Virus record (IMG/VR): IMGVR_UViG_3300036979_001044 | Coordinates: 32,811-96,810 of that record | DNA: 64,000 nucleotides | Strand: one strand, 5' to 3' | Origin: a virus | Part shown: positions 33,537-61,993 of the stretch, piece by piece | How the letters are laid out: every line of letters starts with the position of its first letter | How positions within the stretch are numbered: the stretch's first letter is position 1 | Notes under the pieces: generated by a model | What the model saw: the letters and a program-made list of their open reading frames with translations, nothing else | Told to the model about the DNA's origin: nothing | Databases searched by the model: none | Position numbers and translations under genes: made by a program

Positions 33537-33877
33537 ATTGGGCCTAGCGCTTGCTTGTAGTATGCCTGCGCCGCGGCGTCGGTGTCGAATTCTATCGGAG
33601 CCCCTGGGCAGAAAGGAGACAACTCGGCCGCCGCTTCACGATCGAGGCGATTCAGGATAAAGCGACCCTTGGGGGTGTTGATCTCCAGGTGCCCATTCTG
33701 CCAGTCGTCGACAATCTGATCGTCGGGCTCCTCGATGGGCAATGTGAGATCCACCCCGCCGTCGGTCCGGAGTAACAACCCCCCGGGCATTCGTTGAACG
33801 CGGCCGAAACGACCGATGGGAGAATTGTGATCAGATACGCAGTGGGTTTCGTAAACCAGATCGGTGAACATGATCAC
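33533..33877 (-). CDS. Hypothetical protein
   Basis: 114 aa, coupled to the stop of the 2685-aa gene. Confidence 0.6.
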   Translation of the reverse strand: MIMFTDLVYETHCVSDHNSPIGRFGRVQRMPGGLLLRTDGGVDLTLPIEEPDDQIVDDWQNGHLEINTPKGRFILNRLDREAAAELSPFCPGAPIEFDTDAAAQAYYKQALGPI

Positions 33878-36800
33878 TCCACCGGCGCAATTTCCAGCGC
33901 CTTGGCAAAATCAGCCGCTGTACCAAAAGCAGAGACCCCCTTATGGACTTTGCCAACGATGAAATCCTCCAAGGACTTTCCATTGATCTCGGTCTTTCCG
34001 GCCTTCTTCAGAGCGGCAATCATCTGCTTGCGCTCATCGGAATCATCGACCACCACCGCGACAATGTCTTTCAGGCCCACGCCGCCTTCAAATAGGATCT
34101 CGTTGAGACCGTTCAGATCAGTTTCGTATCGCTTCTTTCCGTAGGTCACCGAAGATCCATGCGCCTGATGCGAGTTGGTGTTTCCGTAACCGTCGGCGTT
34201 GTACCGCCACCAGTCGACGCGTTTGAACAACCGCGGGCTAAAGATGATCTGGCAAGCGTAGGACTCGCTCACCACGGAATTTACGCCAGCCACTCGGCAG
34301 AAGACCCCCTTCGACCCGCCGCTCTGTATGTCCGGTCCGGGAGACTGCCCTGAGTGCCAGACTCCGTGCACCAAACAGTTCTTCCGACTCGCCCAACCCG
34401 AGCCTTGGATCAGCTGAAGGAAAGTTCCGCTGAGGCTCGCGCCGACATAGGGGAAAGACCATTTCTGGAACTTTTCGGCGTCGTCGGCAATCACCGAAAT
34501 ATGGTTGTCGAAGGTCTTTACCACCCGCAACCCTTCCACCTTCCCCTTGGCCCCCAGTTTGGATAGTTGCCCATCCAGCCATGCCTCATCGTGCATCGTC
34601 ATCGGAGAAAAACTGTCCTCGTTCCATCCTTTGGCCCCCATCAATCCACGCACCAGCATCGACTTCTTGAAGATGCGATCGCTATCCTCGTTTATCGGGG
34701 CGAGCATCTTGTCTGGGTCCTTGCCCATTTTCTGGAATGCTTCCCGCAACTCGCTCAACGGGTTCTCGGTTGCCGGGATGCGAACCCGGAAGGTGTTCTT
34801 GAAGGTGTCCTGGCTCGAACTGGGCGGAACAACCAGAATGGAGCTACCCGATTCAGTCTTTCCGCAAAATCCTCCAGGCGTCGGCGCACTGGAGATCTTG
34901 GGGGTGTACTCGGTGTGCGTACCGGTCTCCGGATCAAAAGTAGCAACATCCGTGGAACCACCGTCGGGTTCCGTGCCCTTGCTTCCCAAGATCGATCCGA
35001 ATTGCGCCGTGCCGGTGCTCAACTCGGATTTCCCCGAATTGAAGTTCACCAGGTCTCCGGTGAACTCGTAGTAGAGTTTCCCCTGCTTGTCTTTGACTCG
35101 ACGGAAGCGGATGCAGAAGTCGCGCAGTTCCCCGGGAGCACCCACTCGCATGACATGCCCGTAGAGCGAAGGTTTGATGGAAGCCACGTCCGCCAGATCC
35201 GCCGACCCGTCCCCGACTTCGGACCAATACTCCCCGGTATCGACAGAAGGCAGTCCGCTCTGGACGAACTCTTCCGGCTGCTCGGGAACGTCCACCGCGT
35301 AGGTCTCTTCGACGCTGAAGACCTTTTCCAGAGACTTCTTGAAGATCGAATGCACCACCGATCCGCTTCCCAGTTTGGGCTCCGGGTGCGGGCTCTCCAG
35401 ACCGTACTTCGCGATGATCGCTTTCATCTGCGCCATGGATTCTGGACTGGTGCCGACTACCTTGAGGAAAGCGAGATTCACCGGGTCGGTCGCGTGCTCC
35501 TTGATCTTGTAAAACCCTGGTTCAGAAGAAATCAGATCGGAAACCGTGTGCTTGAAGGTCTTTTTCTGGAACGTGGTCCCGTCCGGATACTCCTTCCCGT
35601 CGGGGCCAGTGATCATCTTGCCGATGCCCACTTTGAACTTCTGCTCCAGCGCCTTCTGGAGCCCAGCGACATCGAGTTTGACCGCCTCCCCCCAGGGCGT
35701 CTCAATCGTCTCCATCTGGAAGGGCGTAGCCTCGTGGAGAATCTTCAGATAGTAGGCGAACTGTTTCTGGTGGGTCTTGTGCGAGAGCACCAACTCCTCG
35801 CCCGCGGTCCGGGCGATAACTCCCACCGGGATCTGGTAGCTGGCGAAGTCCTTCTGCAAGTAGGCGAGCGTCTGGAGCTGGCCCTTGTCGACTACTGGCG
35901 GGTGCGTCGTCCCCCAGGCCTTGATCGCCACAGCCTTCTGCTTGGCCGCTTCGAACTTCGCGGCGGCCTCCTTCTCGGCGGCCAATTGAGCCTTGGTCTT
36001 CTTCTTGGGCTTGGCCTTGGCCTCGGGCATGGTCTGCCAGTTGGGATCGCTGGGGGCGTGCTTGACGCTGGAAGCCTCCAGCGCGGTGGTCTCCACCTCG
36101 ACCTGGGTGAACTGAAGCACCTGGCCGTCGATGGCTACGAAAGCGCCCTGGGCGTTGACCTTGGGTATCCCGCCTTTGTTCTTGATGTGATGCTCGACGT
36201 TCAGCTCCTTGAGCGCGTTGTAGAGCTTGGTGCTGGCGCCTTCCACCCCGTCCAGGCACACGTACATGGCCGTGCCCTTGGCCTTCTTGAATTTGAGCGT
36301 GCCCTCCTGGAGTAGCGGATGATTCTTGAGCGCGTCCACGAGATACATGGAGGTCTTGACCTTGGTGACCTTCTCCGCCGGAGTCATCTGGGCGACCGGC
36401 TTACCCGCCAGGGGACTCTGCGTTCCAGAAAGATTGTAGAAGTTCGATCCCACCGGGAAAGAGAGTTTGTTCAGTCCGAGCTGCTCCTTTACCTCCGTAA
36501 CCGATGTGCCGACATCCGTCGCACTCAGAGCGTAGGCCAGTGCATCGTCTGCATTCTCGTCTGATCCCCCTACATGAAAAACGCCGTCTTCCCCTACCAC
36601 AGCGAATTGAATCAGGACGTTTGGGTCATCCGTATTCTTGACGTAACCGTACTGGCCATTGAGCAGATAGAATTTCTTCCCCTGCCATTCTCCGGAGATC
36701 ACCACTCCAGGAGGCGGCACCCAAGCCGGCCACCCAGAAGGCTTCTCGATGGTCGAGTGATTCGCTCCGCCCGTAGGCTTCGATCCGGCAACGACGCCCT

Positions 36801-39800
36801 CTTTGATTTTTTCCAGAGTCTTTTGCACCGCCTCCGGGAACTTGCTGTAGTCGGTGTGCACGTTTTCTGGAAAACCCGGAACCCCTATCGGCTGCTGCCA
36901 GCTCAAGATGGTTTCTATCACGAGGTCGCCGAGCGCGTTTGCATCGGGCAGCTCATATATCTGCCCTCCCCCGCTAACGGCTTTCCAAGCATTTGCCGCA
37001 TGTTTGGTATAGGTATAGGTGTTGTTAGTCTTGGACTTGGTCTCGATTACCGTCCCCACCGGGAGCGCGCTAAATTTAGCATCGTCTTCCAGATATGGGG
37101 TGTAATCAGAAATGGTCACGGTCTGCTTTGCAAGGAAAGCGCCCTCCGCAAGTTTTTCAAACTCCTCCCAAGCAGCTGGGTTTTTTGACGCCGGCGGTGC
37201 CACTTCCAGCACCTTCTCGTAGAACAGCTCAGTCGCAAGTAGACTGGCAGGGTAGGAATTCGTCCCTTGCGATCCTTCTACTAGCCATTCCCCATCGGGC
37301 TTCTTGGTGTACTTGTAGAAACTCGTTCCAGCCTGGGCCTGGATAACCGTACCCACCGGGTAATCGTTCAGCGTGATCGTAGTGATACCCTTTGGGACCT
37401 CCGGTTTTTCTGGAACTTTACCGGAACCTGCTTTCCAGGCATCCAGGGTCTCTTCCTGGATATCCGAAAAAACCTTGCCATTGCTGCCCGAGGATAGGGT
37501 CACCCCGTCCGCTGTCAGCACCCAATTGTCCGATGAATCCTTGAGGTAAGTGTAGAAATGCCCGTACTTTCCCTTGGTCTGGATGAAGGTACCCACCGGC
37601 AACTTCGCAAATTCTTCTTCCGTAGTGGGCAAACCCTTCGGAGATTTTTTTGCAAAAATCGGAGCCCCGCCAGGCTTCGTCCAGCTTATGATGACTTCAT
37701 CTTTCAGCTCGGTTGCTACCACATCGCTAGTGAGTGATCCCACATTGGTGCCGTCTGAATATTTCTTCCAGTAATTGTCACTCTCCTTGACGTATTTATA
37801 CTCGATCGATCCGTTCTTGGACTGAGACTGAATGATCGTGTTCTTCGGTAGAAATGTAAAGTCTCCAGTTTTCTCCAACGCGGCAAGCTCGGCTTGAAAG
37901 TCTCCCGTGACTGGCAGTTCTGTGATCGGTGCCAGATTCAGCTTGCTCGGAGCCTTCAGCATCTTGATTATCGTATCTGGATAGGAGAGTACGGATTGCA
38001 TATAAGCAAGCTCATGCAACTCTTTCTTCTCATCCTCCCAAGTCACGTCCCAATCTCCCTTGGCAGTTTTAACCGCAGTGACTATCGGAGAATCCATCTT
38101 CTTTTCTATAGAATACTGGATCAATGTTCCTGCCGGTAGCTTGCCGAGTGCCTCGGGATCGTTCTTGATCGCCGCCTTTATCTTAGACGCGGCCTCAATC
38201 GGGTGGAACTTGAACCACTCCCAGTTCTCCGCGCTCGGCTCCCCCTCTTTTTCTGGAACTTTATCGACACCTTCTTTCCAAGCAAAACCCGGTAGCGCGT
38301 CGAATATCGACTCTTTTTCTGGAACTTCGATCTTGGTGATCTCATTGAACGGCTGTTTCCAAGAATTGGCTACCGTCAGATCCTTGTAGGTATTTCCCGA
38401 TTCCAAATTGCTCCAACCCGCCTCTGTCTTGACATACACATAAGTAGGATGGGAAGTCACATTCACATGAACCTTGGTGCCAAGCGGGTAAGCCTTTATC
38501 TGCTCCAGACTCGGCGGGGGAATTGGCCCCCCGGAAGTAGTCGCGGGTTTCTTGGGCGCCTGATAGTCGAACACGGGTAGAAGTACCTTGGGTTCCGACC
38601 CTATGATCACATGGTCAAGCAACTCGATTGAAGGGTGCGTACCGTAGGGGCCGGCTTCAGTGTTGGGCGCAACTGTGAAGGTCCACTGCCCGCCCTTGGT
38701 CTTCTCGGCCTGGTGCGATCCTTTCTCCCACGGACTTTTCCAGGAGATCGTCGTTCCTTCCGGAAGAGCATCAATCACAGCACCAGTCACGTCCTTGAGC
38801 GGATGCCAGTCGTACTCGTCCTTGGGCCCCAAAGCCCCGGCTAGTGCATCCACTGCGGAAGTAATCTGCACCATTTCTTCTGGAACCGGCGCGCCCGGTC
38901 CTTCCCACGACTCGATCTTCTCGTCCTGCATCATGTTGTAGGCTTCGGCAGTAGTTATTTCCGCCGTGTCTGCCGATGCGAATTTATTGATCAGCGTCAC
39001 CTTCCATTTGCCCCCAAAGAGCTTCTCGTAGACGGTCTTGTTGTCGTTACCGTCGTCGGTCTGAATCTTGGTTCCGTATGCAGCAGCTTCCAGAAATTCC
39101 AGAGTAGCCCCGCCTATCGTCGGAGCTAGGGATTCAGCTCCAGCGGGAGTAGCGGCTCCTGGTTCAGGAACTGAAGGAACAGGAAGAACAGGAGCAGGAA
39201 CAGCGCCAGCTCCAGTACCCAGTTCAGCTGCTGAAGCCGCCGGAGCTTCTTTTGGGCTGATTCCCCAAAACTTCCATCCACCACCAGAAGGGACTTTGTT
39301 GGTTTTGTTTTTGGCTTTGTAGTCCGCAGCATCGGAATATCCTTTCTGGACAATCCAGACATGATCCGACGCGGCGCTCAGTGTCTGGAAGGTCTGCGCG
39401 GTCTGCCCGGGGATTTCAACCAGCAACTGCCCATTCTGGAGAACGCTGAGAGTGACCTCCTGCTTCTTCTCGTAGCCAGGAACCTTCTTCTTCACCTTGA
39501 TGACCGTGCCCTTGGCGAGCGGGCCCTCGGTGAACTTGGGCGCATTTTCTGGAACCACCGCGGTCGGCGGCAGGATGGCCTCTGGCGGCGGACCTGCCGG
39601 GAACTTGGCCAGCGTCTCCTTGTCCTTCTCGGCGAGGGCCGCAGTAGCTTTGTAGCTACCCAGCTTATCCGCCAGGCTCTCGCCCGCCCATAGCTCGAAC
39701 TTGTGCGCGAGCACGTCGATCTGAAGTTTGCCCAGCACCCCGTTCTTCACCGTCCCGTCGAGCCCTTCCCACCAGCCCCACATTTCTGGTTTTCCCACCT

Positions 39801-41931
39801 TCGATACCCGGGCGGTCAAGATCAACGTGCCTACCTCGCTATCGCTCACCTTCACCGCGACCCCCGGAGGCAGCGGCAAATCCCACGCGGTCGTGTAGTG
39901 CTCCTTGCCGCTATTGGCCACCAGCCACTCCTGAATCTCCAATGGCAAAAACTGACCAGTCACCACCTGGCCGTTGGTCCAATCGTGCAGCAACTGCATT
40001 GCCGCGACTACCGGCTGCTCGGGCGCGACGACCTTCTGCTCCTCCAGCTCGGCGACGGTCTGGGTCACTGGCGCCGGCGGCTCCTCGGCCTTGCCCGCGG
40101 CCTCAGCCAGCTCCTGCTCAAAGAGCTTGAGCTGGAAGACTTTCGAGCCCAGCGAGATGCCCTTGGCCTTCTTCTCGGTCGCCGACAAGGTCAGCGGCAA
40201 ACCCTGGTTGAACAGGTACAAGCTATCGCCGGCCGCGTTGAGCGAGGTAAACCCGACCATCTTTCCGTCCGGGTAAGTCACCACGAACGACGGCTTTTTC
40301 CCTTCCCAGTTCTCGCCGACTTCCAGCCCGTACTGCTTGCCCTTGTACGCAGTGGTCAGCTTCATCCCGGGTGCAGGCACTCCCGACGGCCACCAGCTAG
40401 CCGGAACCACGCCCGGGGTGTGGATAGTCACCTCCACCGACTTGCCGCCCTTCTTCGTGAGCGGCCAGCCGGCCTTGGGCTTCCCGGCAACCACCGGGGC
40501 GACTTCCACCGCCTTGAGCTTCGGGGGCGATCCTGGAACCACCGGGGTCACTGCCGCCACTGCCGTGAGAGGAATCTCCAGCTTGGTCGGGCCGTGCTTG
40601 GGCTTGGCCTTGGGCTTGGCGGCCGGCTCTCCCTCGGGGGGAGTCTCCCAGGCTACCTGGACCGTCTCAGGCTTGGGCAGGACCACCTTCTTCCCCAACT
40701 CCGTACTCAAGAACCCTTCAAAATCTGAACGCAAATTTTGAAGACGGGCGAGCATTTTCTGGAGCTGCGCTTGCGGGTCTGCGTGCGTCCAACCGGAGAC
40801 CGTCGACACGTAGGGAGCGACAATCAATTGAAATTGCTCAGGAGATATCTGGTCCGCACGGTTCACTACATCGGCCACCGCCTCGATGAGCCCAGCCGAA
40901 TCGATCTCCCCCGACTTGATCTTCTCCCAAAATTTGTTGTAAATCGGGTGGCTAGGGTTCGGAGAGTAGTCCGCCTCCAGCTTGTCCTTGCCCAGAAACT
41001 TCCAGCTCTGCCCCTTGTCGATGGCAGCCAACTGCCCGCCTTGACTCAGGAAGTTTCCAGCGTGACTGTCGTGGTTGGAGATGAGCCAATCCACCACCTG
41101 GTGTTTCATGATCAGTGCTTTGTACTTCTTGAGGTTTTCCATCTGAGGGTCGGAGTGCTGGCTCGAACTCTCCTGCCAGGTCTGCCCGTCCAGAATCTGG
41201 ATGAGCGCTCCACCCTTCCCCTGTACTTCCACGTACTTGACCGCAGGGATGAGGTTACCCAGAAGCAGTCTCCCCAGCCGGCAGGCGGCCTCTTCCGCTC
41301 GGGCGATGATCGGGTCAGCGGCCTTGAAGACCCACTTGTGCCCGCCCTTGCTCTCGAAGAGCTTGTTGCCATGCGAGCCAGAGAACTTCCCAGCCGGTAA
41401 CTCCTTCAGCTCCGAGAGTGCCGGGAATGACCCGTCCCCGTACTGCCCGCTGGCCATCTCCGCCGCCCACCCGGTTTCCTGCTCCTCTGAGGGCCGTAGA
41501 GGCTCTCCAAGGTGCGGGAGGAGAGAAGCCTTAGCCACCTTCCACTTCCCCCCGCCGAGAGGCTGGGGGGTCACAGAGAACGCTTCCTGGAGGAGGCTAG
41601 CTCCCTCCTTGCTGAGATGCACCTGCTCTGCGTCTACCGCCCCCTGGAGCCCCAGCTCCATGAGCCACTTGACCAGGGCCACGTCTTGCTGTGCGGGAGT
41701 GTAGGTGTGCTTGGCCTGAAGAATGGCGACCAACTGCTGCGCTGCGGCGCTACCGGCGTAGATCGGCTTGCCGTTTGACTTATACCCGACGATCTTCCCG
41801 TTCCGCGGACCGATGGCTATAATCGACAGTCCCTGCCAACTCCCCAGATTTATCTTTACTTTCGCGGTCTTGACCAGCGCCTTGATCAACGGTCGCGGTT
41901 CCAGAAAATGGAAAGCTGGTAGTGAATTCAT
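33874..41931 (-). CDS. Giant polyvalent protein: HipA/PI3K-like kinase, RAMA-like domains, 8 internal repeats, putative ADP-ribosyltransferase
   Basis: Kinase motifs WVFK...AEEAA...DWLISNHDSHAGN...AIDKG; FTSLNAAG and FQTLSAAS...GGWKFW units; LPxGTxI repeats; C-terminal SPGPD..SGGSKGVFCR...NEILF. Confidence 0.75.
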   Translation of the reverse strand: MNSLPAFHFLEPRPLIKALVKTAKVKINLGSWQGLSIIAIGPRNGKIVGYKSNGKPIYAGSAAAQQLVAILQAKHTYTPAQQDVALVKWLMELGLQGAVDAEQVHLSKEGASLLQEAFSVTPQPLGGGKWKVAKASLLPHLGEPLRPSEEQETGWAAEMASGQYGDGSFPALSELKELPAGKFSGSHGNKLFESKGGHKWVFKAADPIIARAEEAACRLGRLLLGNLIPAVKYVEVQGKGGALIQILDGQTWQESSSQHSDPQMENLKKYKALIMKHQVVDWLISNHDSHAGNFLSQGGQLAAIDKGQSWKFLGKDKLEADYSPNPSHPIYNKFWEKIKSGEIDSAGLIEAVADVVNRADQISPEQFQLIVAPYVSTVSGWTHADPQAQLQKMLARLQNLRSDFEGFLSTELGKKVVLPKPETVQVAWETPPEGEPAAKPKAKPKHGPTKLEIPLTAVAAVTPVVPGSPPKLKAVEVAPVVAGKPKAGWPLTKKGGKSVEVTIHTPGVVPASWWPSGVPAPGMKLTTAYKGKQYGLEVGENWEGKKPSFVVTYPDGKMVGFTSLNAAGDSLYLFNQGLPLTLSATEKKAKGISLGSKVFQLKLFEQELAEAAGKAEEPPAPVTQTVAELEEQKVVAPEQPVVAAMQLLHDWTNGQVVTGQFLPLEIQEWLVANSGKEHYTTAWDLPLPPGVAVKVSDSEVGTLILTARVSKVGKPEMWGWWEGLDGTVKNGVLGKLQIDVLAHKFELWAGESLADKLGSYKATAALAEKDKETLAKFPAGPPPEAILPPTAVVPENAPKFTEGPLAKGTVIKVKKKVPGYEKKQEVTLSVLQNGQLLVEIPGQTAQTFQTLSAASDHVWIVQKGYSDAADYKAKNKTNKVPSGGGWKFWGISPKEAPAASAAELGTGAGAVPAPVLPVPSVPEPGAATPAGAESLAPTIGGATLEFLEAAAYGTKIQTDDGNDNKTVYEKLFGGKWKVTLINKFASADTAEITTAEAYNMMQDEKIESWEGPGAPVPEEMVQITSAVDALAGALGPKDEYDWHPLKDVTGAVIDALPEGTTISWKSPWEKGSHQAEKTKGGQWTFTVAPNTEAGPYGTHPSIELLDHVIIGSEPKVLLPVFDYQAPKKPATTSGGPIPPPSLEQIKAYPLGTKVHVNVTSHPTYVYVKTEAGWSNLESGNTYKDLTVANSWKQPFNEITKIEVPEKESIFDALPGFAWKEGVDKVPEKEGEPSAENWEWFKFHPIEAASKIKAAIKNDPEALGKLPAGTLIQYSIEKKMDSPIVTAVKTAKGDWDVTWEDEKKELHELAYMQSVLSYPDTIIKMLKAPSKLNLAPITELPVTGDFQAELAALEKTGDFTFLPKNTIIQSQSKNGSIEYKYVKESDNYWKKYSDGTNVGSLTSDVVATELKDEVIISWTKPGGAPIFAKKSPKGLPTTEEEFAKLPVGTFIQTKGKYGHFYTYLKDSSDNWVLTADGVTLSSGSNGKVFSDIQEETLDAWKAGSGKVPEKPEVPKGITTITLNDYPVGTVIQAQAGTSFYKYTKKPDGEWLVEGSQGTNSYPASLLATELFYEKVLEVAPPASKNPAAWEEFEKLAEGAFLAKQTVTISDYTPYLEDDAKFSALPVGTVIETKSKTNNTYTYTKHAANAWKAVSGGGQIYELPDANALGDLVIETILSWQQPIGVPGFPENVHTDYSKFPEAVQKTLEKIKEGVVAGSKPTGGANHSTIEKPSGWPAWVPPPGVVISGEWQGKKFYLLNGQYGYVKNTDDPNVLIQFAVVGEDGVFHVGGSDENADDALAYALSATDVGTSVTEVKEQLGLNKLSFPVGSNFYNLSGTQSPLAGKPVAQMTPAEKVTKVKTSMYLVDALKNHPLLQEGTLKFKKAKGTAMYVCLDGVEGASTKLYNALKELNVEHHIKNKGGIPKVNAQGAFVAIDGQVLQFTQVEVETTALEASSVKHAPSDPNWQTMPEAKAKPKKKTKAQLAAEKEAAAKFEAAKQKAVAIKAWGTTHPPVVDKGQLQTLAYLQKDFASYQIPVGVIARTAGEELVLSHKTHQKQFAYYLKILHEATPFQMETIETPWGEAVKLDVAGLQKALEQKFKVGIGKMITGPDGKEYPDGTTFQKKTFKHTVSDLISSEPGFYKIKEHATDPVNLAFLKVVGTSPESMAQMKAIIAKYGLESPHPEPKLGSGSVVHSIFKKSLEKVFSVEETYAVDVPEQPEEFVQSGLPSVDTGEYWSEVGDGSADLADVASIKPSLYGHVMRVGAPGELRDFCIRFRRVKDKQGKLYYEFTGDLVNFNSGKSELSTGTAQFGSILGSKGTEPDGGSTDVATFDPETGTHTEYTPKISSAPTPGGFCGKTESGSSILVVPPSSSQDTFKNTFRVRIPATENPLSELREAFQKMGKDPDKMLAPINEDSDRIFKKSMLVRGLMGAKGWNEDSFSPMTMHDEAWLDGQLSKLGAKGKVEGLRVVKTFDNHISVIADDAEKFQKWSFPYVGASLSGTFLQLIQGSGWASRKNCLVHGVWHSGQSPGPDIQSGGSKGVFCRVAGVNSVVSESYACQIIFSPRLFKRVDWWRYNADGYGNTNSHQAHGSSVTYGKKRYETDLNGLNEILFEGGVGLKDIVAVVVDDSDERKQMIAALKKAGKTEINGKSLEDFIVGKVHKGVSAFGTAADFAKALEIAPVE

Positions 41932-42617: not shown

Positions 42618-42625
42618 GGCTACCC

Positions 42626-45600
42626 TCACTTGTTCTTGTCCGATTTCAGCTTCTCGCTGATCCAGGCAACGATCTTATGCTGATCCACCGCGATGTACTC
42701 ATTGTAGAGGTGCCCGACTCCATCGCTCTCCATGATCTTGCGCAACTTGGCCAAGTTCTCCTCGGGCGTCCCGCCCTTCTTGCACACGGTACGATAGAGG
42801 ATAGCGGCACGATGGGACGTATCGAGCTTTTTGAACGTCGCCTCGAAATGCGCGATGCACTGGTCGTGGGTGTCTTTGTCTGGAATCCAATCACGCATCC
42901 GGAACTTGTAGTAGCGGCAGGAAAGAGAATCGTTTTGCGGCATGTCCTTGATCGGGATGGGCAGCCGCAGCACCTTGGCCTGGGCGTCGGCGATACCGCG
43001 ACCGGTCGGATCGACAATGACCTTGTTCTTCGGGTCGTAGTAGATGCTGTTGCAGGTGAAGTCGCGGCGCTCGAAATCCTTGCGCATCTCGTGGTCCACC
43101 CGAATGTCCGGCCACCACTTGCCGTTGACCGGGTTGGCGCACTGCTCGCCGTCCGCGGTCGTATAGGACACCATGCCTGTCAGGTCAATGCCCGGGCCAC
43201 TCTTGGTGGCACAAACAGTCATCCAGGCCTCGTCTCCAGGGGCCTTGCTAGTGATCCGCCTGTCCCCGGGCAAATCCGCACCAACTTTGTTGAAGCAAGT
43301 TTTCATCACCGTCGCGTCGGCCGTGGTCACCATATCGAAGTCCTTGAGCTTGGAGATCACCTTCTCATCGGTGATCTCACTTCCCTCTTGGACCAGATTG
43401 AGCAGATCGCGCACCGCGCCGCCAACCAGATAGGTCTCGCGGCCTCGTTCCCAGAGCCAATCGACGTACTCGGTTGGGGTGTGCGTACCCACCGCAGCGG
43501 TGGCCATCAACTCGTCCAGAATCTTCTGGTGCCGTTCATTGGGGCGGACGAAAGACTTTTCTGGAAGATCATGCACCGCTGACTTGTAGTGCTCGGGGCC
43601 CGCCTCATTGGACTTGAATCCCTTCCAGTCCTCGAAGTGCAGTTGCGTCGAGTGGTTCTTGTCGTGCGGGCCCTGGTAGTCCGGCCCAAAATCAACGATC
43701 GGATGCCCCGCTTGATCCGTGCCGATATACGTCCCCGGAATCTCCTGGCCCTTTACGATCGCAGTGAGCTTGGCGCCGTTTCTCATGTACCCCTTCAGCA
43801 CCTTCGGAACTTTCAGCTCGCTCTTGGGTACGAGCTGGATCTCGCCCACCCGCTCGACTTTCGATGGAGCAAAAACGGTATCCGCCTTCACCTTCAGCGC
43901 GGGCGCCTGGGCGGGTTTGGGCTTTCCCGGCTTCTCCGCCTTTTCTGGAAAGACCGCCAGCGGATCGGCGTTCTCAATTTTCTGGAATAGATCGCGACTC
44001 ACCGTGATCCGGTTGTAGGTCGGGCCGGGCTCAATGGATGCCTCAATCTGGAAATGCTTCCGCAGCTGCTCGATGACCCCCTTGTGCCCGGGAGCGAACT
44101 TCAGCACCACCAGATCAGGATCGGTGTGGTGCGGGCGCAAATGCCCATCCAGGTACGTCATGAGTCGCGCGGTCCAGCCCGGTTCCTTGGTCTGTCCACC
44201 GTTGCGGAAGTAGATGGGCGTGTTGCCATCCCAGGCGACGATCTTACCTCCGCGGGGCCCAGTCGCGATGATGGCGGCCATCGACTTCTCCAGGTCAGCT
44301 TTGTCCTGGGGGCGGAGCGCTACCTTGGCGGTGTTGCCGATGACGTAGCGCCTACGCTCTTCGGTGCCCTCCCTCGCTGAGTCCTGCCCGGTCACCGCCG
44401 CGTCGGGCAAAACGATCGGGTAGACGTTACGCAGAGGCTCGGTGACCGTGTAGATCTCCTTGTCCCGCTTCAGTCCCTCGGCGACCTCTTCCTCCTCATC
44501 CTTCCAGTCGCGGAGCAAGTCAGCCGGATCGATGTGAGGATTGGGACCTTTTTCTGGAACGCGCCGCTTGGGGGTCTCGACCAGGTAATTGGCCGCGGTG
44601 CCATGGCCGCCCGCGCGATTGCCCGCCTGGCTGGTGGCCGCGCCGATGTCCGCCGATACCTGCCCGCCCTTGCCCAGCCCGGATAGCGGGATGACCAATC
44701 GGAGCTTGGGCGACTCCTCGGCGCTCTGCACCCGGGTGAGCCCCACCCAGCGCTTGAAGGCCTCGATGTCCATGGGGTTGGTCTGGAGGAAGAACTTCTC
44801 CGGCCGGTCGTAGCTCAATCCGTAGGCGCGCTCGGCATCCTCCTGATTGGAGAAGCCCAGCATGCACTTCTGCTCGTCCCAGATGCCGGTCTCGGGATTC
44901 TGCTGCTCGATGACGTAGGCCATCTCGGAGTCGGGGTCAGGGCCGATGAACACGTCGAGAGGATCATCGTCGGCGCCGGTGGTGCCCAAGATCTCCCCGT
45001 AGGCGTGCAGCATCCAAGTCTTGTCGGTGCCCCCGTCCGGGGTGTGAAAGGTCCGCGAGGTGCCCTTTGGGTTCTCGATGTGGATGGGCAATCCCCAGAG
45101 ATGCACCAGCTGCTCGCCACTGGAGAGAGCCTTGCGCAGATCGTCTTCGCGCAGGAGCGCGCGCATGAGCGCCTCCTCGCTCTTGTAGACCTTGCCGCCC
45201 TTGCCCCCGGGCACCAACTCCCCCTCCTTGTTGAAGCCGTAACCGTCTGGAATCCTTAGTAATTGACAAGAACAATGCGGATGGATCGTGCCGATGACCG
45301 CTTGCCACTCGGCGGTCTTCTTGCCCACGTTGGTGCCGTTGGCTACCAGGGTCGAGAGCGGGAAGATGCGCGGGTTGCCGTCCGGGCCGTTGTAGAGCCG
45401 GTCGCAGTGCTTGCAGTTATGCACTGCTAACCCATTGGCAAAATAGCTCTCGTCTTCCTCCACTTCCAGATTGAACACTTCACCTGTGAAAGGAACCACA
45501 GCAATGCTGTTGACTCCTCTGGCATAGAACGATATAGGCTGCGCATGAACCGTAGACGCAATATTCCCAAATCCGAATTGATTCGACTCTGGAAAACCGG

Positions 45601-47282: not shown

Positions 47283-47476
47283 GTCTCGCTCTCCTCGATT
47301 TCTGCGCGCAGATAAGTCAACACCGCTACGCCTTTTCCGATTAGCCCTAAAATCTTCTCCGCATCACAAACCGCGGCAGACCGGGATAGCAACGTATTCC
47401 AGAATGAGCACCCCGCCACGTAGCCGCCGGACAAAAACATCGGACAACCGTCGGCGCAGTGCACGGGCTTAGCCAT
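47192..47476 (-). CDS. Small Cys-rich hypothetical protein
   Basis: MAKPVHCADGCP...GC...C. Its start overlaps the upstream stop, but it also overlaps the next gene by about 90 bp. Confidence 0.4.
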   Translation of the reverse strand: MAKPVHCADGCPMFLSGGYVAGCSFWNTLLSRSAAVCDAEKILGLIGKGVAVLTYLRAEIEESETCKPTSAATAPDTEGSSPVTDTPGASPKPS

Positions 47477-55004: not shown

Positions 55005-56669
55005 TTAGAGATTCACGATCCACTTTTTCCGGGCCGACTTGGTCATGCTCGCATTTATATCCCCGCCGGTTTCGTCCTCCCCATCATACTGGCGGAGCAA
55101 GCTCTCAAAGTCGATAGGGTTGCCACCACCCGGCACGGTACCATCGGGCTGAGGCGGGTTGCCCATCTGCGATCCCGCCCCAGGCATCCCGCCCATGGCC
55201 GCGGCTTGCTTCTGCGCGTTGAACTGGAGCCAGGTGGGGTCCAGAATCACCTCGCCCTGTCCGTTAGGCAACGGTGAAAGATCATCCTCCGCGCGCAGCT
55301 CATCGACCGTGCAGAAAGACTTCACCCGCTTCATGTTGAGGTCGGCGATCTCGTCCTTGGTCTTGGCATCCAGCCCAACGAAGTCGAACTCGAATTCCTC
55401 GTTGATCGGCCAGATGATGTACTGGTTGATGGCCTGGGCGATGTGGCGGAGCAGGGGGCGCAGCCCGCGTTCCTTCGACTCGACCACCTTCTCCTTGTTG
55501 CTCGACTCCTGGAGCCCGCCCTTCTGCCCGACGTTGCCATATTTGAAATTGATCTCCGCCGGGTCAATCGTGTACATGGCGCAGGCGATCTTGATCAGGA
55601 AGTCCATGTAGCTGTTGAATTCCATGTCACGGGATGACTGCTGGAGGTTGATGTATTGCAGCTCGTCGGAGTTGGTGATCGGGGTCCGCCAGGCGTTCTC
55701 GACCCCGGAGAGCATCTGGTACCAGTGGCGGCGGAAGGCTTGCAGTTGTTTTTCTGGAACGGTGCCCTTGAAGTTGATGATGCCCTTGGCCGCGCTGCCC
55801 TGCGAGAAGAACTTCTGATTGTACTCCATCGCGTAGAGGATGCTGGTCACCGTGGGAATGAGCATCTCCAGCTCGCTCACCCCGTAGCCGTGCAGCCGGA
55901 TATCGGTCCTGGGGTTCCGGGTCATGAAACACAGCTCATCGCAGGTGTACTCGGCGATGATCATCCCATCATAGATCTGCACGTAGCGGATGGCCGTATC
56001 CAGATCCTCGTTCATGTACGTGCTCGCGCTGTCAGCGAGCCGGATGGTCGCCGCGTCGACCGCGTACCACTCCGCCGGCTGCCCGCGGCGGTTGGGCACC
56101 ACCTCGAAGCACATCTGATCGTAGATCAACGAATCCCAGGCGAGCTTGCGCAAAAACTTCTCGAACGAATCACGCCCACGCGGATTGTCCGTGATGCCCG
56201 TTCGAGTGAGCACGTTCTCCATCTGGGTCATCCATTGCCGCTCAGCCGGACTCGGCTCCTTCTCCTGCTGGCGCAGCTTCAGCCGGTACCCCAGCTGATA
56301 GCGATCGTGCTGCGGACGGCAGAAGGCGGCGATCTGCTGGATGCGAGTCTGGACGATCGCTTGGATGATCGGAACCCGCCAGGTAATCGCCTTCAGCGTT
56401 CCATACGTGACCTGACTGGGCCGATCTTTGAACCCCAACTGCTCGATGATGGAAAACGGATCGAAGAAAAGCGCCTTGGGGTCCTGGTCCGCCTTCTCGG
56501 TTGGGACCGGATTGGAGATCGCCGTATCCGCGTTCAAGTTGCCCGGCATGGTGTCAGCCCCATCGTCGAGCGGAACTGGGGCGAGCACCGTGGCGGCTTT
56601 CTGGAATCCGTCCGCGGCCAGTTGCGCCGCGGTCCAGCCTAGCCTTTGCAGGTTCTCGAAGATGCCCAT
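55005..56669 (-). CDS. Portal protein
   Basis: DSLIYDQ..FE, VDAATIR, YVQI, NPRTD...YGVSELE, FFSQG, DMEF, DPAEINF, KERGLRPLL, TVDELR. Confidence 0.93.
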   Translation of the reverse strand: MGIFENLQRLGWTAAQLAADGFQKAATVLAPVPLDDGADTMPGNLNADTAISNPVPTEKADQDPKALFFDPFSIIEQLGFKDRPSQVTYGTLKAITWRVPIIQAIVQTRIQQIAAFCRPQHDRYQLGYRLKLRQQEKEPSPAERQWMTQMENVLTRTGITDNPRGRDSFEKFLRKLAWDSLIYDQMCFEVVPNRRGQPAEWYAVDAATIRLADSASTYMNEDLDTAIRYVQIYDGMIIAEYTCDELCFMTRNPRTDIRLHGYGVSELEMLIPTVTSILYAMEYNQKFFSQGSAAKGIINFKGTVPEKQLQAFRRHWYQMLSGVENAWRTPITNSDELQYINLQQSSRDMEFNSYMDFLIKIACAMYTIDPAEINFKYGNVGQKGGLQESSNKEKVVESKERGLRPLLRHIAQAINQYIIWPINEEFEFDFVGLDAKTKDEIADLNMKRVKSFCTVDELRAEDDLSPLPNGQGEVILDPTWLQFNAQKQAAAMGGMPGAGSQMGNPPQPDGTVPGGGNPIDFESLLRQYDGEDETGGDINASMTKSARKKWIVNL

Positions 56670-56687
56670 CGGGCCCTCGCTTTCGGG

Positions 56688-59600
56688 TTACTTGTCGCCC
56701 GGGAAGTACACGTCGCCCTGGGTCCGCGCCGGGCGAAGCATCCCCGCCCTGGAACCCTGCACCAGTTGCTCGTGCTCAGAGGTGTTGACCACATCCTGGA
56801 GCGTGCGCTGGGCGCCGTCGCCGCAGCTCGGGCACACCGCCAGGCTCTTGGCCATGAGGTTGTGGCAGGAGGTGCAGCGCACCCGCTGGCTCAGGAACAG
56901 ACTGGTGGGCGCTACCTGCGGGCTCTCCCCGTGGTAGAAGCCCTCCGACTTGGCCAGCTCGCTCGCCGCGAGGTCGGCCTGGTTGCTGTAGCTCACCAAC
57001 GCGTCGGCGCCCTGGTTCCAGATGATCCCCTCGGGGCGCGGAGCGGGCGCACTGCGCTCGGGGGCGACTCCGCGGCCGAACTCCACATCCTGGCTCTTGC
57101 GCAACTCGCTCACCGCCTGGGCAACTTCCTTGCGGACCATGTCTCTTTGATTCTGATGGATGGCCATGGACTTGGCTGTCTCGATCGGCTTCTTGCCCGG
57201 CTTGAGCTGGTCGGACACCTTGTCGTCATCGTCCGAGAGCACGTCCTCGGGCACGCTCGGGGCGCCGGGCTGCTTGCTGTCCGAGTCGTCCTCCCCGCTG
57301 GTCTCCCCCACGCCGTCGACCTTGCCGCCCTGCTCCTCGCCGGTTCCGAGCTTCTCCTTCGGCCCGCCCTCGGGCATGCTCTGCGCCTTGGCCAGGTACT
57401 CGTCCAGTGCATCGATCCGGCTCATGGATTTTTTCCTTTCTTCTGGCTGGTACGGTACGCCCCCGTAAGTCTCACCTTCCTCTGGGGCGAACATATTTCC
57501 CGATGCCGCTGCATGATTTCTGGAAGCGTCATAAGCGGTCTTCGCGTACTCCTCGATCGCCTCCAACTTCTGGCGCAACTTCTCGGGGGCCTCGTCCCGA
57601 TACAAGCCTGTGTAATCGTCTTTGGTGAAAACATTTCCCCCGTACTGTTTAGCGATTTCGTCATGGAGCCGATCACTTAACTCCCTAGCCTGTTCCGCTT
57701 CCTTCTTGTGCGCAGCCGCCGCATCCCGATGATCGTACTTGTGGTAATCCGGACGCTGTTTCCGCATCTCGCCATCCGCCCGCCAACCGACGCTCGCAGC
57801 GGAATAATGCTCCCGGGACATGGCCGAATGGATTGGCTTCCCGTCCTTGGTTTTCCCAATCACCTTATCCTTTTTCAAGAACTCAGCGACCTGCTTTGTC
57901 GCCGGCGAGCCCTTGCCTTTCGCTGCCGCCATGGATGTCTGCTTCTGCATCCCCTGCCAGACCTTCCGATGCTGATCGGAAATTGCCATGTGGGCCCCGC
58001 TCATATCGGGATGATGGCTAAACTGCTCCGCAGCGGCCCAATGGGCCCGTTCCGCCCTTTGGTGCGCCAAGACAGACGCATTCCCAAGCTTAGCCGCCTC
58101 TGCCGCCTGGGAAGTATCGATCGCGCTTCGGTGTGCAACCGCCCACTTGTCCTTGACGCTGTCAGGATATTCATACCGCCATTTCCCGTTGGCGCCTCTC
58201 CATCTCCGAGCATAGTTCCCCCCGTAGACACCACCCGCTTTTTCCAGATACTCGTCCAGCTGCTCGATCGCCTCCATGGATTTCTTCACCTTCTCTTTTT
58301 TCTGGAATGGATTCTCCTTCTTTTCTGGAACCGGCTGGCCCGGCTTCGGGGGGCCGGACGGAGCCTGCCCGCCGCCCGGGTTGGTCGGCACGGTCTTCAT
58401 ACCCGGATCGGGCTGCGGGGCCTGGGGCGCTCCCGCGGCCGGCTGCATCTGGGCCGGGGGCATGCCCGGGGCCGGCTTGGGGGCCGGCGGGGCCATCTGT
58501 CCGGGCTGTGCCCCGAACTGTCCGGGGGGTGGCACCGGGAGTTTGGCTACTGGCGGCTGGCCGGGTTGCTGACCGGGCACCGGGGGCTGACCGGGGGGCA
58601 CCGGGCCCTTGGCCAGCGGGGGCTGGCCCGGCGGCACCGGGGGCTGCCCTGGCGCCGGGGGTTGGCCCGCGACCGGAGGCTGCCCTGGCGGAGGCATGGG
58701 CTGCCCAGGAGCCGGAGGCTGGCCGGGCTGCGCGCCAAAGGCTCCTTGCGCCTTATTGGCCATGTAGCTGGTGGTCACGATGGCCGCCGCCTTGGCATGG
58801 TCTGCCCCGACCTGATAGTGCTCGGCGGAGAGGGTGGGGTCGTCCTTGAGCGACTGGGCCGCCTTCATGTGCGCCTGGGTCGCGTTCTGGTGCGCCCCGA
58901 TGAGGTCGCCGGCCGTGCCCGGGTGGGTCTCGGCGGTGTTGCTCGCGTCGATGGCTTGCTTGTGGTCGGGGTGGTCGCTCTCGTAGAGCCACTTGCCCGC
59001 CGGCCCCTTCCAGCGCCGGGTGTACGCGCCACCGATCCCGCCCGGGGGAACTGGAGCCTGGCCCGGACCGATACCCGGAGTAGCCGGAGCGGCCGGAGGA
59101 GGGAAGGCCTTTTCCAGATAGTCGTCGAGCTGATCGATCGCATCCATGGATTTCTCTCCTTCTGCCTTTGCGGATTGATAACCTGTCGGCATGAGCATTC
59201 CAGAGTTACCCTGCATCCCCAGCGCGGTTTCTACATGATGCAATTGCTTCCGGATGCCCTCAAATTCCGTAGTTTCCTGGGGAGACCAGGGCCGCGCCTT
59301 GCGCTGGTCCATAAACTTCTCCGCCACCACCTTGAGTTGCTGGTGCATGTCGCGCAGCTTCCCCACCGCCGTATCGAAATCGTCGTAGTCCTTCGGGGAC
59401 AGAGCTTCAGGCTTCGCGCTCTGGTACCCCTTGATCTCCTCGATCAGCTTGTCCCCCTGGTCCACCAGCGCGTTCGCGCCCCCCTTTGCGCGCGGTGCCT
59501 CCTGCACCTCTTTGCCGGTCGCCACATCGATCACCCGGCCGGTAGGCACCATGCGAATTTTCCCGGTGGGATTGCCTTGCGCGTCCAGAATCGGGTCATG

Positions 59601-61055
59601 CCCTCGCTCCCCTTCTTTGTAGTAAGCGGGGACCTTCGGTTTTTGGGTGATGTCGATCCCACGCGACTCGTACATCAAGCGCTTCTGCCCCTCTCCTGTG
59701 CTGGTGTCGTAGTCCTTTTGCTCCTTCCAAGGGATCTTGTGCCCAGCATCCGCCCACTTTCCACCTCGGGGTCCGATGAAAGGGCCGCCAGCCTTTTCCA
59801 GATATTCTCCGAGGTCGTCGATTCCAGAAAGTGCTTTTTCCATATCAGTCTCCTCGTTCAGGGATTTTTTGACCTTGGGTTTGCGCCCAGAGACTGCGTA
59901 CAGCTTCTCGATGAACCCAGGACTCGTGGCCATCTTGTTGTGCCAGTCAGCGAGCTGATCATGGAGCAGCATGCGCTCCTTCCGCACGCCCTTGTGCGGT
60001 AGACTGGGGAGCTTGGTACCAGCCATCACCTCCGCGCCATAGTCGGAATGGAACTTCGCGGCCTCCATGTGATCATCGGCGGTCATCCCCTGCTCGTGTT
60101 GCTTGAGCAAGTAGTTGGCCGCCGTTTTCTGGAACGTAGCCGACGCCGGCTCGGGAGTGGTGTAGCCACTCGCCCAGCGCTGGTGCCAGGAGCTGGCCAT
60201 GCCGGTCGGCACCGCGGGGATGTCGACCTTGCCGGCTTTGCCGATGGGCGGGGTCGGAGTGGATTCGACCTTGGGCGCCTTCACGTCCGCCGCGACAACC
60301 TTGTGCCCATCTCCGCCGCCAGAGTAATCCCCGACGATAGGCTTGCCCTTGTCGGTAATCCGCCAGCGCGGCTGGCCGTTCCATACGCTCACCGTGGCCT
60401 CGAAGATCTTGTGCCCCGCGGGTCGCTTGAGCTTGACGTTGAAGTAGGGGATCTTGCTGCCCATCGCCCCGGTCATGTGCTCATCGATCTGCGGAGCGGT
60501 AACAGCCACGAACTTGTGGGTGCCGACGATGAGGTGGTCGCCAGTCTTGATCGGATCTCCGACCCAACCCTTCGGTGCCCCTGGTTGCGCTTCAGCGACC
60601 TGAGCGATTTGAGGTTTAGGCGGTTCAGGGGCCGGCGCACTTTCTGGAATGCTTGCCCCTTGGGCTGCCTCATGAAGTTTCTTGGCCCGCTCGCCAATGT
60701 ACTCCACCGCCTGGTGAGCGCGGTTGGCCATCTCGGGGTTGCCGCTTTCAGAAACTTTCGCAGCGTAGATCGCTGAAGCCCCACCATCCCCGCCGCCCTG
60801 GGCGTAGTGATGCGCTATCGCCGCGAGCCCATTCATGTGGCTGGCCATGTGCCCGGTGTTCTTGTCGGCCAAATTCTGGAAATGCTCCCCAGCCGTTGCC
60901 CACTGGCTGGCCGACAAGCCGTGCATGCCGGCTTTCTCGCCCTCGGGCTTCCAGGGCACCTTGTGCTCGGCGTCGGCCCACTTACCCCCGCGGGGGCCGA
61001 TGAAGGGGCCACCGGATTTCCAGAAATTCTCCCGAAGCAAAAACCGCGCTGGCAT
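56688..61055 (-). CDS. Modular putative internal head polyprotein with repeated linkers, Pro/Gln-rich region and C-terminal zinc ribbon
   Basis: Four K(S/A)(M/L)xxI(D/E)xL(D/G)(E/D)YL(E/A)KA linkers; two GPFIGPRGGKWAD modules; two GG.Y.RRW.G..GKW.YE modules; CTSC...CPSC. Confidence 0.75.
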   Translation of the reverse strand: MPARFLLRENFWKSGGPFIGPRGGKWADAEHKVPWKPEGEKAGMHGLSASQWATAGEHFQNLADKNTGHMASHMNGLAAIAHHYAQGGGDGGASAIYAAKVSESGNPEMANRAHQAVEYIGERAKKLHEAAQGASIPESAPAPEPPKPQIAQVAEAQPGAPKGWVGDPIKTGDHLIVGTHKFVAVTAPQIDEHMTGAMGSKIPYFNVKLKRPAGHKIFEATVSVWNGQPRWRITDKGKPIVGDYSGGGDGHKVVAADVKAPKVESTPTPPIGKAGKVDIPAVPTGMASSWHQRWASGYTTPEPASATFQKTAANYLLKQHEQGMTADDHMEAAKFHSDYGAEVMAGTKLPSLPHKGVRKERMLLHDQLADWHNKMATSPGFIEKLYAVSGRKPKVKKSLNEETDMEKALSGIDDLGEYLEKAGGPFIGPRGGKWADAGHKIPWKEQKDYDTSTGEGQKRLMYESRGIDITQKPKVPAYYKEGERGHDPILDAQGNPTGKIRMVPTGRVIDVATGKEVQEAPRAKGGANALVDQGDKLIEEIKGYQSAKPEALSPKDYDDFDTAVGKLRDMHQQLKVVAEKFMDQRKARPWSPQETTEFEGIRKQLHHVETALGMQGNSGMLMPTGYQSAKAEGEKSMDAIDQLDDYLEKAFPPPAAPATPGIGPGQAPVPPGGIGGAYTRRWKGPAGKWLYESDHPDHKQAIDASNTAETHPGTAGDLIGAHQNATQAHMKAAQSLKDDPTLSAEHYQVGADHAKAAAIVTTSYMANKAQGAFGAQPGQPPAPGQPMPPPGQPPVAGQPPAPGQPPVPPGQPPLAKGPVPPGQPPVPGQQPGQPPVAKLPVPPPGQFGAQPGQMAPPAPKPAPGMPPAQMQPAAGAPQAPQPDPGMKTVPTNPGGGQAPSGPPKPGQPVPEKKENPFQKKEKVKKSMEAIEQLDEYLEKAGGVYGGNYARRWRGANGKWRYEYPDSVKDKWAVAHRSAIDTSQAAEAAKLGNASVLAHQRAERAHWAAAEQFSHHPDMSGAHMAISDQHRKVWQGMQKQTSMAAAKGKGSPATKQVAEFLKKDKVIGKTKDGKPIHSAMSREHYSAASVGWRADGEMRKQRPDYHKYDHRDAAAAHKKEAEQARELSDRLHDEIAKQYGGNVFTKDDYTGLYRDEAPEKLRQKLEAIEEYAKTAYDASRNHAAASGNMFAPEEGETYGGVPYQPEERKKSMSRIDALDEYLAKAQSMPEGGPKEKLGTGEEQGGKVDGVGETSGEDDSDSKQPGAPSVPEDVLSDDDDKVSDQLKPGKKPIETAKSMAIHQNQRDMVRKEVAQAVSELRKSQDVEFGRGVAPERSAPAPRPEGIIWNQGADALVSYSNQADLAASELAKSEGFYHGESPQVAPTSLFLSQRVRCTSCHNLMAKSLAVCPSCGDGAQRTLQDVVNTSEHEQLVQGSRAGMLRPARTQGDVYFPGDK
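58330..58745 (-). repeat. Low-complexity PGQPP peptide repeats
   Basis: About 10 imperfect (P)PGQPP units in the translation; very GC-rich DNA. Confidence 0.75.
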
Positions 61056-61057
61056 CG

Positions 61058-61993
61058 TTATCTCCTCACGATGAACTTCGGTTGAAGGGACTTCTCAGCG
61101 CCTTCCGTGGCACCTGTCCTAAGATAGAACCGACCCTTGCGGAATTCCAGCTTTCCCCCCGCGCATCCCTTCAGCGCCTCCTCAACCTCGTCCGGGTGGA
61201 AGCGCTCAGCCATCTCGTCTCGAAGCTCGCGTAGGTGTGCTCCTTGATCCCCGCGCTCGCCGACCGCCTTGCAGATCTTCCCGTGCAGGTACTGGCGGCG
61301 CGCCTCCCGCCCATCCACATGAGCGTCGGGGCGCGATTGGTACTTCTCGGGATCGTAGATGTAGCGGTAGCCGTCTCCCTGGGGCACCCTTTTATGGTAA
61401 GCACCTCCCCGCGGCTCGGCCTTTTGCAAGTCCGCATTTGCGGAGGGTACGCCCTTTTGCAGCTCGTCGACCGTGACCACCTGGACCATCGACTTGCGCG
61501 CCGTCCTCCAGAAAGAAAGCGCCCGTTCCAGAATCGCCTGGCGCAGCTCGGGCTGGAGTCGGGCTTCCCGGGTCTGGGAGATGACTGCCTGCCGCAGCAC
61601 CAGCTCGTTGGTCGCCGAGGCTACCGCCTTTTCCAGAAAAGTCTCCCAGCTCTGCGAGGCCCTCGCATCGAAGCCCATCCCCCGAACCACGCTCGCCGCA
61701 CTTCCCATGGGGTCGGTGTTCTGGAGGAGTTGGGCAATCTCGGGCTGCCGCGGCATGCGCTCCAGATCACGCTGATCACGCATATCCGCCATTCGCTCCC
61801 GACTGGGGACCTGCCCGGGAATGCGCTGCAAACGGTACTGCACGGGTACCAGGCTTTTCCCAAGCCCGCCCATGCGCTTGAAGATACCCATGACATACCG
61901 CCAATCCTTAGCCCGACCTTGCGCTTCCGCCCTGGCCTTGGCCTTGCTCCAGAGACGTTCCTGCTCAGGGGAATGGACCACGTTCGCCGGCAT
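61058..61993 (-). CDS. Putative internal head protein
   Basis: Start MPANVV with an AGGAG RBS; LGK|SL, LEK|A, LQK|G and LQK|AEPRGGAYHKRVP...YRYIY. Confidence 0.65.
   Translation of the reverse strand: MPANVVHSPEQERLWSKAKARAEAQGRAKDWRYVMGIFKRMGGLGKSLVPVQYRLQRIPGQVPSRERMADMRDQRDLERMPRQPEIAQLLQNTDPMGSAASVVRGMGFDARASQSWETFLEKAVASATNELVLRQAVISQTREARLQPELRQAILERALSFWRTARKSMVQVVTVDELQKGVPSANADLQKAEPRGGAYHKRVPQGDGYRYIYDPEKYQSRPDAHVDGREARRQYLHGKICKAVGERGDQGAHLRELRDEMAERFHPDEVEEALKGCAGGKLEFRKGRFYLRTGATEGAEKSLQPKFIVRR

Follow-up and report, generated by a model that had tools for sequence, protein, structure and literature searches.

A conserved 22-residue peptide beside head-protease-type sites as a candidate header of cargo cassettes in giant proteins of uncultured myoviruses

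We analyzed 64,000 nucleotides of the IMG/VR virus record IMGVR_UViG_3300036979_001044 (positions 32,811 to 96,810; hereafter the window), which form the terminal 64 kb of this 96.8-kb record, and in particular a short peptide, here called the module, that recurs in giant proteins encoded among the phage head genes. The head operon is on the minus strand, with terminase first and the tail sheath and baseplate genes downstream of the capsid gene. On this strand the order of genes is terminase, H, G, portal, a 129-residue protein, D, C, a 107-residue protein, B, and A, followed by a 114-residue protein, the protease, a scaffold-like protein, and the major capsid protein. About 27 kb of giant genes lie around the portal gene, and the reading frames overlap or nearly abut. 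The remainder of the record encodes DNA polymerase A, a RecA-like protein, SbcCD-like proteins, and RuvC. The principal genes of the operon are as follows.

63521..64000, minus strand: large terminase subunit, C-terminal part; the gene is broken off by the record end
61058..62056, minus strand: protein H, 332 residues; 6 hydrophobic-x-K-[ASG] sites, 1.0 expected
56688..61055, minus strand: protein G, 1455 residues; no library domain
55005..56669, minus strand: portal protein (PF04860), 40-45% identity to SPO1-group portals
48788..54580, minus strand: protein D, 1930 residues; SNF2 helicase split by a LAGLIDADG intein, and a C-terminal unit
47469..48803, minus strand: protein C, 444 residues; one module, then a domain without library match
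42626..46954, minus strand: protein B, 1442 residues; intein, InPase (PF18823, E = 1.3e-33), and PolyA_pol-type nucleotidyltransferase
33874..41931, minus strand: protein A, 2685 residues; no library domain
32373..33200, minus strand: head maturation protease (phrog_1028, E = 6.6e-35)
31516..32361, minus strand: scaffold-like protein; 11 hydrophobic-x-K-[SGA] sites, 1.5 expected
30029..31462, minus strand: major capsid protein (phrog_752), 40% identity to the SPO1 capsid protein

By the identities of their portal and capsid proteins, the head genes are akin to those of SPO1-group Herelleviridae. An earlier model-made reading of the letters of the window (the sequence-only reading) had described effector polyproteins encoded between the terminase and prohead protease genes, and gene order and domain matches show multi-enzyme proteins of the polyvalent type within an operon of terminase, portal, protease, scaffold, and capsid genes. 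It had also named the enzymes that follow the module. SNF2 and the nucleotidyltransferase were recovered with Pfam, as was InPase; the zeta-like kinase has a weak match (E = 0.006), while the zincin and the HipA-like kinase were unsupported.

The module in its main form, the W-type, is a 22-residue peptide with the consensus [FY]-I-G-P-R-G-G-K-W-A-D-x-x-H-T-I-P-W. Five copies are present in three of the giant proteins (G, D, and C), each with a lysine site upstream of it.

60951..61025, minus strand: W copy 1, G residues 11-35, at the N-terminus; F-W-K|S site; 50.4 bits
59727..59801, minus strand: W copy 2, G residues 419-443, internal; L-E-K|A site; 48.7 bits
54233..54301, minus strand: W copy 3, D residues 94-116, behind a conserved 80-residue acidic helical leader; F-G-K|A site; 48.2 bits
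49931..50002, minus strand: W copy 4, D residues 1527-1550, with SNF2 before it and a weak zeta-like C-terminal part after it; L-F-K|A site; 54.4 bits
48546..48617, minus strand: W copy 5, C residues 63-86; L-E-K|S site; 50.7 bits

The profile made from these five copies scored them at 48-54 bits; over all six translated frames of the complete record, the remaining matches reached at most 4.7 bits. The five W copies are not a chance likeness. They vary at most synonymous positions, the mean column identity is 70%, and the conserved columns are mostly first and second codon positions. Since synonymous sites are free to vary among the copies, what is selected is the peptide sequence rather than the nucleotide sequence.

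Three further motifs with a PRGG or PRNG core are found in B, A, and H, and we call them I-type and H-type.

44210..44260, minus strand: I-type motif GPRGGKIV..PIY, B residues 899-915; L-E-K|S 9 residues upstream; InPase before it and nucleotidyltransferase after it
41758..41811, minus strand: I-type motif GPRNGKIVGY..PIY, A residues 41-58, at the N-terminus; conserved in A-like proteins of four other contigs
61355..61429, minus strand: H-type motif L-Q-K|A-E-PRGG-x-Y...Y-R-Y-I-Y, H residues 210-234; a predicted winged-helix domain follows

The eight copies that the sequence-only reading had listed were thus all found where it had placed them, on the minus strand. It had treated the I- and H-types as variants of one module, and this did not stand. 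In other contigs, A-like and B-like proteins bear a conserved I-type motif at the N-terminus. The H-type follows the pattern hydrophobic-x-K-A-x-PRGG-x-Y...Y-x-Y-x-Y, and its K and PRGG columns are invariant in 19 H homologues. Profiles were compared between the W-type and the H-type, and hhalign aligned six columns (PRGGxW/Y) with a probability of 9.6% and nothing beyond the PRGG core. Because the alignment covers PRGGxW/Y only, W- and H-type are treated as separate motifs with a common theme. From their sequences, the W-, I-, and H-types appear to be separately conserved motifs that have K-A/S and PRGG-aromatic in common and are not demonstrably homologous. AlphaFold2 predicted a beta-hairpin followed by a winged-helix-like domain for the H-type region (predicted local distance difference test, pLDDT, 72), and the best PDB matches were winged-helix domains with weak E-values. 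Protein H, possibly a processed and DNA-binding protein of the head interior, also occurs in clade members without the W-type module.

The lysine site is closely coupled to the W-type module. K-[A/G/S] is found 5-10 residues upstream of the module G-P in 218 of 241 unique copies (90%; 120 proteins), compared to about 11% expected, and P3 is Leu, Phe, Ile, Val, or Met in 91% of the copies with the K site. The spacer between the site and the module core is variable, through inserted Gly or Ala. When 394 sites were anchored on the lysine, P3 was Leu in 66%, P1' was Ala (55%), Gly (28%), or Ser (15%), P2' was Gly in 67%, and P5 and P4 were acidic. A set of 220 module proteins contains 2106 hydrophobic-x-K-[ASG] sites versus 1220 expected by shuffling, and 412 of these adjoin a module. 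In the window, enrichment is seen in the scaffold (11 versus 1.5), H (6 versus 1.0), and G (13 versus 6.0), and an SPO1-like scaffold has a similar count of hydrophobic-x-K-[SGA] sites. The sequence-only reading was therefore right about a hydrophobic-x-K-(A/S) site upstream of the module, and Gly can also stand at P1'. Its statement that the site is close to every copy holds for the W-type, while in protein A the K|A site is about 24 residues upstream of the I-type motif.

The same kind of site is found in the head proteins. The capsid leader reads DVDALNK|ALVAG, with a site identical to that of SPO1-like phages; in the A511-like phage LP-048 the aligned stretch is EDALK|SFTTG. Loessner and Scherer are said to have found in 1995 that Cps of Listeria phage A511 is cut at Lys|Ser. 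The protease of the window is an HK97/S78-type serine protease in which His62 and Ser128 are invariant (13 homologues), and its catalytic domain is flanked by conserved FFEK|A and LAK|S sites. The L-x-K|small site near the module matches the cleavage preference deduced from these sequences for the HK97/S78-type head protease of the phage. There is no W-type module in the capsid leader, in the scaffold, or at the protease's own sites.

The part of the protease after LAK|S (32373-32690) resembles the N-arm of the capsid protein after its K|A site (31270-31370). The two share the pattern K|[AS]-L-x-A-G...P-G-x-G-F-x-L-R-x-E-S-L-E, with 50-62% identity over 30-45 residues, at several loci. Possibly the tail of the protease imitates this arm and is thereby incorporated into proheads.

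The word-indexed search seeded with the five-copy alignment gave 214 longer proteins. When the profile was then run exhaustively against 1.84 billion cluster representatives, 798 matched at E <= 0.001, of which 582 were at E <= 1e-10, with 1-5 matched stretches per protein and two or more in many. We examined 74 IMG/VR loci that had been found via the module. All 178 module copies in these loci are on the portal strand, and in 66 of the 74 a portal homologue is no more than 10 kb away, with protease, scaffold, and capsid genes downstream; the other 8 have terminase next door, share synteny with the cargo genes of this window, or are at contig ends. The sequence-only reading had proposed looking for such clustering of profile hits near portal and protease genes and behind K|A/S, and both were found, the latter at the 90% given above. 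A second sample was drawn by portal alone and comprised 80 loci, 32 of them at least 15 kb long. The module was present in 41 of the 80, and in 20 of the 32 long ones. Within this sample, every locus whose portal exceeds about 52% identity carries the module, and more distant members with large portal-adjacent proteins may lack it. In GTDB genomes, the module was found on three contigs of metagenome-assembled genomes (Acidimicrobiia, a proteobacterium, and Myxococcales).

No copy of the module is C-terminal in its protein. The last one is followed by at least 45 residues (median 391), and the median gap between copies is 300 residues. The module is within the first 30 residues in 28% of the proteins, and the short leader before it still holds the K site. 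In relatives, an InPase, DUF5661, or LPD1 domain is often present before the first or the next copy. Tandem copies with a linker alone between them are rare. Judged by sequence, we count such copies without cargo between them as a hint that the module may have a function of its own. Thus, of the proposal in the sequence-only reading that every unit begins with a module, the orientation is retained, since no copy is C-terminal, while three observations depart from it: in 72% of the proteins the first segment carries no module (for example an InPase domain), about 1000 residues follow the second and last W copy of G, and there are the tandem copies.

The domains behind the module are extensively shuffled while the peptide stays strongly conserved. 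Module-bearing relatives combine 2-5 Pfam domains each, and the companion domains include InPase, ART-PolyVal (PF18760), LPD1 (PF18796), DarA_C (PF18789), ddrB-ParB (PF18763), SNF2, zeta toxin, topoisomerase IB, GGDEF, GNAT, SAM lyase, phosphatases, and PAPS reductase-like domains. ART-PolyVal, LPD1, DarA_C, and ddrB-ParB are hallmarks of polyvalent proteins, as is the InPase of B, and both B and D carry at least two unrelated effector or enzyme domains in one chain. The module itself had no match among Pfam, PHROGs, and NCBIfam models and no usable match in the ESM Atlas, and its motif strings had no match in the text of 8.4 million papers. A retained 22-residue header coupled to a cut-type site in about 800 protein families was not found in the libraries or the literature searched. 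The kind of system is already known, namely capsid-carried polyvalent effectors processed by a head protease.

AlphaFold2 predicted no secondary structure for the module and its flanks (125 sequences, pLDDT 63). The core has a net charge of about +1.2, and the 30 residues after the module are rich in His, Lys, Pro, and Glu and scarce in hydrophobics, with a mean net charge of +0.9. Given the lack of predicted structure and the composition of the following residues, the module is taken to be a short peptide between flexible linkers. The lack of an autonomous fold matches what is expected of a docking peptide. The catalytic domain of the protease (residues 16-170, alignment of 13 rows) was modelled in complex with the module (alignment of 125 rows), and the resulting score of 0.02 speaks neither for nor against binding.

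Taken together, we tentatively read the module as the header of a portable cargo cassette in an uncultured clade of myoviruses of about 100 kb with SPO1/Twort-like head genes. The cassette can be written as [acidic or beta-strand linker]-L-x-K|(A/G/S)-G(0-3)-P-[FY]-I-G-P-R-G-G-K-W-A-D-P-x-H-T-I-P-W-[flexible linker]-[effector domain(s)]. The giant polyproteins would co-assemble into the prohead, where the HK97/S78-type serine protease would cut at L-x-K|small and the downstream unit would retain the module as its new N-terminus. The unstructured module would then dock to a conserved site in the head interior, which might be the inner face of the capsid, the scaffold, or the portal. With several copies on one chain, loading would be avid, and the cut units may be held where they are until ejection. 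Genomic context and motif identity are the grounds on which loading and cutting are proposed. The module-bearing proteins are likely capsid cargo, and they are probably cut at L-x-K|small by the head protease. For the docking step, the models are the DarA-Hdf pairs that line the inside of the P1 capsid and the protease-processed ejection proteins of SPN3US; that the module is a head-docking or loading peptide is possible on this analogy, and we do not put it higher than that. A general and transferable address code, in which any protein behind the K|small site and the peptide would be loaded into the prohead through a conserved pocket of the head interior, released by the protease, and kept fit for ejection, seems rather unlikely.

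Several observations weigh against the cargo-header reading. Since many first units have no module, the module cannot be required on every cut unit. Over the whole of A, B, and D, the density of sites is no higher than in shuffled sequence. K-[ASG] is kept even behind a three-residue leader, so it could be part of the recognized peptide and not a scissile bond. Twelve of the 32 long portal-anchored loci carry large portal-adjacent proteins with no W-type module. When neighborhoods of ±10 kb were compared between the 20 long loci with the module and these 12 without it, no candidate receptor gene separated the two groups. The genes compared included E_129, H, and the C-terminal domain of G, and the sole discriminator was the leader of D, which is physically joined to a module. 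Finally, no cultured relative carries the module: among 50,697 cultured phage genomes searched by tblastn, none matched the module or protein G.

The leader of D occupies residues 1-80 (54341-54580), is acidic and helical, and is conserved before the first module in the D-like proteins of 18 loci. This N-terminal leader is present in 7 of the 20 loci with the module and in none of the 12 without it. It could be a scaffold-like propeptide that may be removed at the PFGK|A site.

Other roles for the module have to be weighed against that of a cargo header. It might be a protease exosite that recruits or positions the head protease for the adjacent L-x-K|small cut and has no later role. The coupling of K site and module at 90% would suit this, as would the finding of one module per junction and never at a C-terminus, and the other hydrophobic-x-K-[ASG] strings in A, B, and D, which are at chance density, presumably must stay uncut. 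However, the capsid leader, the scaffold with its 11 sites, and the protease's own sites are all without a module, and therefore the protease does not need it. Moreover, a spacer that varies in length between site and core is unusual for a positioning element, the N-terminal copies would remove leaders of 3-15 residues and nothing more, and tandem copies exist. We regard an exosite as improbable. It is also improbable, in our view, that the chains stay uncut and that K-A-G-G-P...W is an inter-domain connector or mini-fold, or a motif that binds a host factor after injection. Such a connector would explain why K-[ASG] is kept behind very short leaders, where cutting seems pointless, and Iyer et al. 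(2017) proposed another kind of processing for polyvalent proteins, by zincin peptidases (PMC5512222). However, the P5-P2' preferences match those of the capsid, scaffold, and protease sites, the module proteins have many more sites than expected from shuffling, the module is confined to head and packaging operons, and no fold was predicted for it.

The sequence-only reading had suggested a DNA-binding or ejection role, for which our analysis found nothing in support. In this explanation the retained N-terminal module would bind the packaged DNA or the exit channel, and the enzymes would leave with the genome. The module would indeed stay on the downstream unit and is never C-terminal, and its PRGG-aromatic core resembles RGG or AT-hook-like nucleic-acid-binding peptides. 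A winged-helix domain is predicted behind the H-type motif, and P1 DarA-Hdf contact DNA (PMC12810830). On the other hand, the net charge of the core and of the next 30 residues is low, first units without a module would stay behind, and the W-type and H-type are not demonstrably homologous. With E-values up to 5-10 admitted, the basic adaptor domain PBCV_basic_adap (PF08789, cut-off 20.4 bits) matched none of 125 W-type and 19 H-type copies and nothing in the record translated in six frames. A tether or ejection tag is thus quite unlikely. The extensive shuffling of the domains behind the module could also suggest a recombination joint at the DNA level, with the conserved stretch serving as a homology patch for cassette exchange between phages. 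As the five copies differ at most synonymous positions and the conservation is in the peptide, this explanation was rejected as very improbable.

The choice of capsid-borne proteins is known for a few model phages, such as T4 with its removed leader, P1 with its Dar hierarchy, and phages with phiKZ-type propeptides. In T4, IPI-III and Alt have an N-terminal capsid-targeting leader before an L/I-x-E| cut, the leader is removed by the gp21 protease, and the proteins are loaded and injected. Like the T4 targeting sequence, the module is a short peptide beside a prohead-protease-type site. Unlike it, the conserved peptide here is after the L-x-K| site, would be retained, and recurs inside chains, and the protease is of the HK97/S78 type. 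There are 1-5 copies per protein, mostly internal, and the leaders before K|small are short and not conserved, which is not the T4 arrangement.

DarA_C and ddrB-ParB domains link the module-bearing proteins to the Dar system of phage P1 (DarA, Hdf, DarB, DdrA/B), in which no shared peptide tag is known. P1 carries anti-defence enzymes in its capsid, and its DarA-Hdf pairs bind the inner capsid surface and DNA (PMC12810830). Unlike the shuffled cassettes described here, P1 loads separate proteins via an ordered DarA/Hdf-dependent pathway (PMC12810830). The phiKZ-like phages (SPN3US gp245; PMC10052503, PMC7411985) are similar in having many head-internal proteins that the head protease cuts at a shared short motif in the course of maturation and that are later ejected, and the cargo of SPN3US is cut by its prohead protease (PMC10052503). 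They differ in motif and protease lineage, and theirs are separate proteins while here enzyme cassettes are shuffled. In the abstract of the SPN3US report (PMC10052503), a conserved retained tag is not mentioned.

In architecture, the giant proteins resemble the polyvalent proteins (PMC5512222), which are also giant multi-enzyme phage proteins with InPase, ART-PolyVal, LPD1, DarA_C, ddrB-ParB, SNF2, and zeta among their hallmarks. They are thought to be packaged and delivered together with the DNA, and the passages searched propose processing that is mainly by zincin-like metallopeptidases (PMC5512222). By comparison with the polyvalent proteins described there, the cassettes here are headed by a 22-residue peptide with a head-protease-type site; term searches of PMC5512222 found no description of a linker, short motif, or junction peptide. 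In their head genes, these phages resemble the SPO1/Twort-like myoviruses (Herelleviridae), which have a homologous capsid protein, portal, and protease and a scaffold rich in hydrophobic-x-K|S, and whose capsid leader site aligns. In the two cultured relatives examined (LP-048 and SPO1L1), the portal, protease, scaffold, and capsid genes are contiguous, whereas here the portal gene is embedded in about 27 kb of cargo genes.

The module is thus a sharply conserved header, defined by its sequence, of cassettes in about 800 protein families, and in phage genomes from metagenomes the motif can serve as a simple marker by which injected effectors are predicted. If the address code were true, it would account for the free shuffling of anti-defence and host-takeover enzymes in this clade and would provide a handle for loading chosen proteins into phage heads. 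It would then amount to a natural plug-and-play system of capsid protein delivery, with hundreds of uncultured phages swapping anti-defence enzymes.

Some other features of the window were seen as well. The record is labelled as a provirus, and in the parts examined we saw phage genes for replication, recombination, tail, and head and no host flank or host genes. Protein D has an intein with a LAGLIDADG homing endonuclease within its SNF2 domain (residues ~460-820, window ~52300-53250), and B has a Hint/intein-splicing domain at residues 210-513 (window 45416-46327). Just before the latter, in the N-terminal part of B (residues 1-209, 46328-46954), residues 142-198 have a weak match to the Topoisom_I catalytic core (E = 0.007), and PF01028 is frequent in module-bearing relatives. 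From these matches, B may hold a topoisomerase IB domain split by its intein. The C-terminal ~250 residues of G (residues 1205-1455, 56691-57443) had no library match except weak zinc-ribbon-like ones (E 0.05-0.17). In 18 loci they are conserved immediately before the portal gene, the remainder of G being variable, and they are possibly a head-assembly domain.

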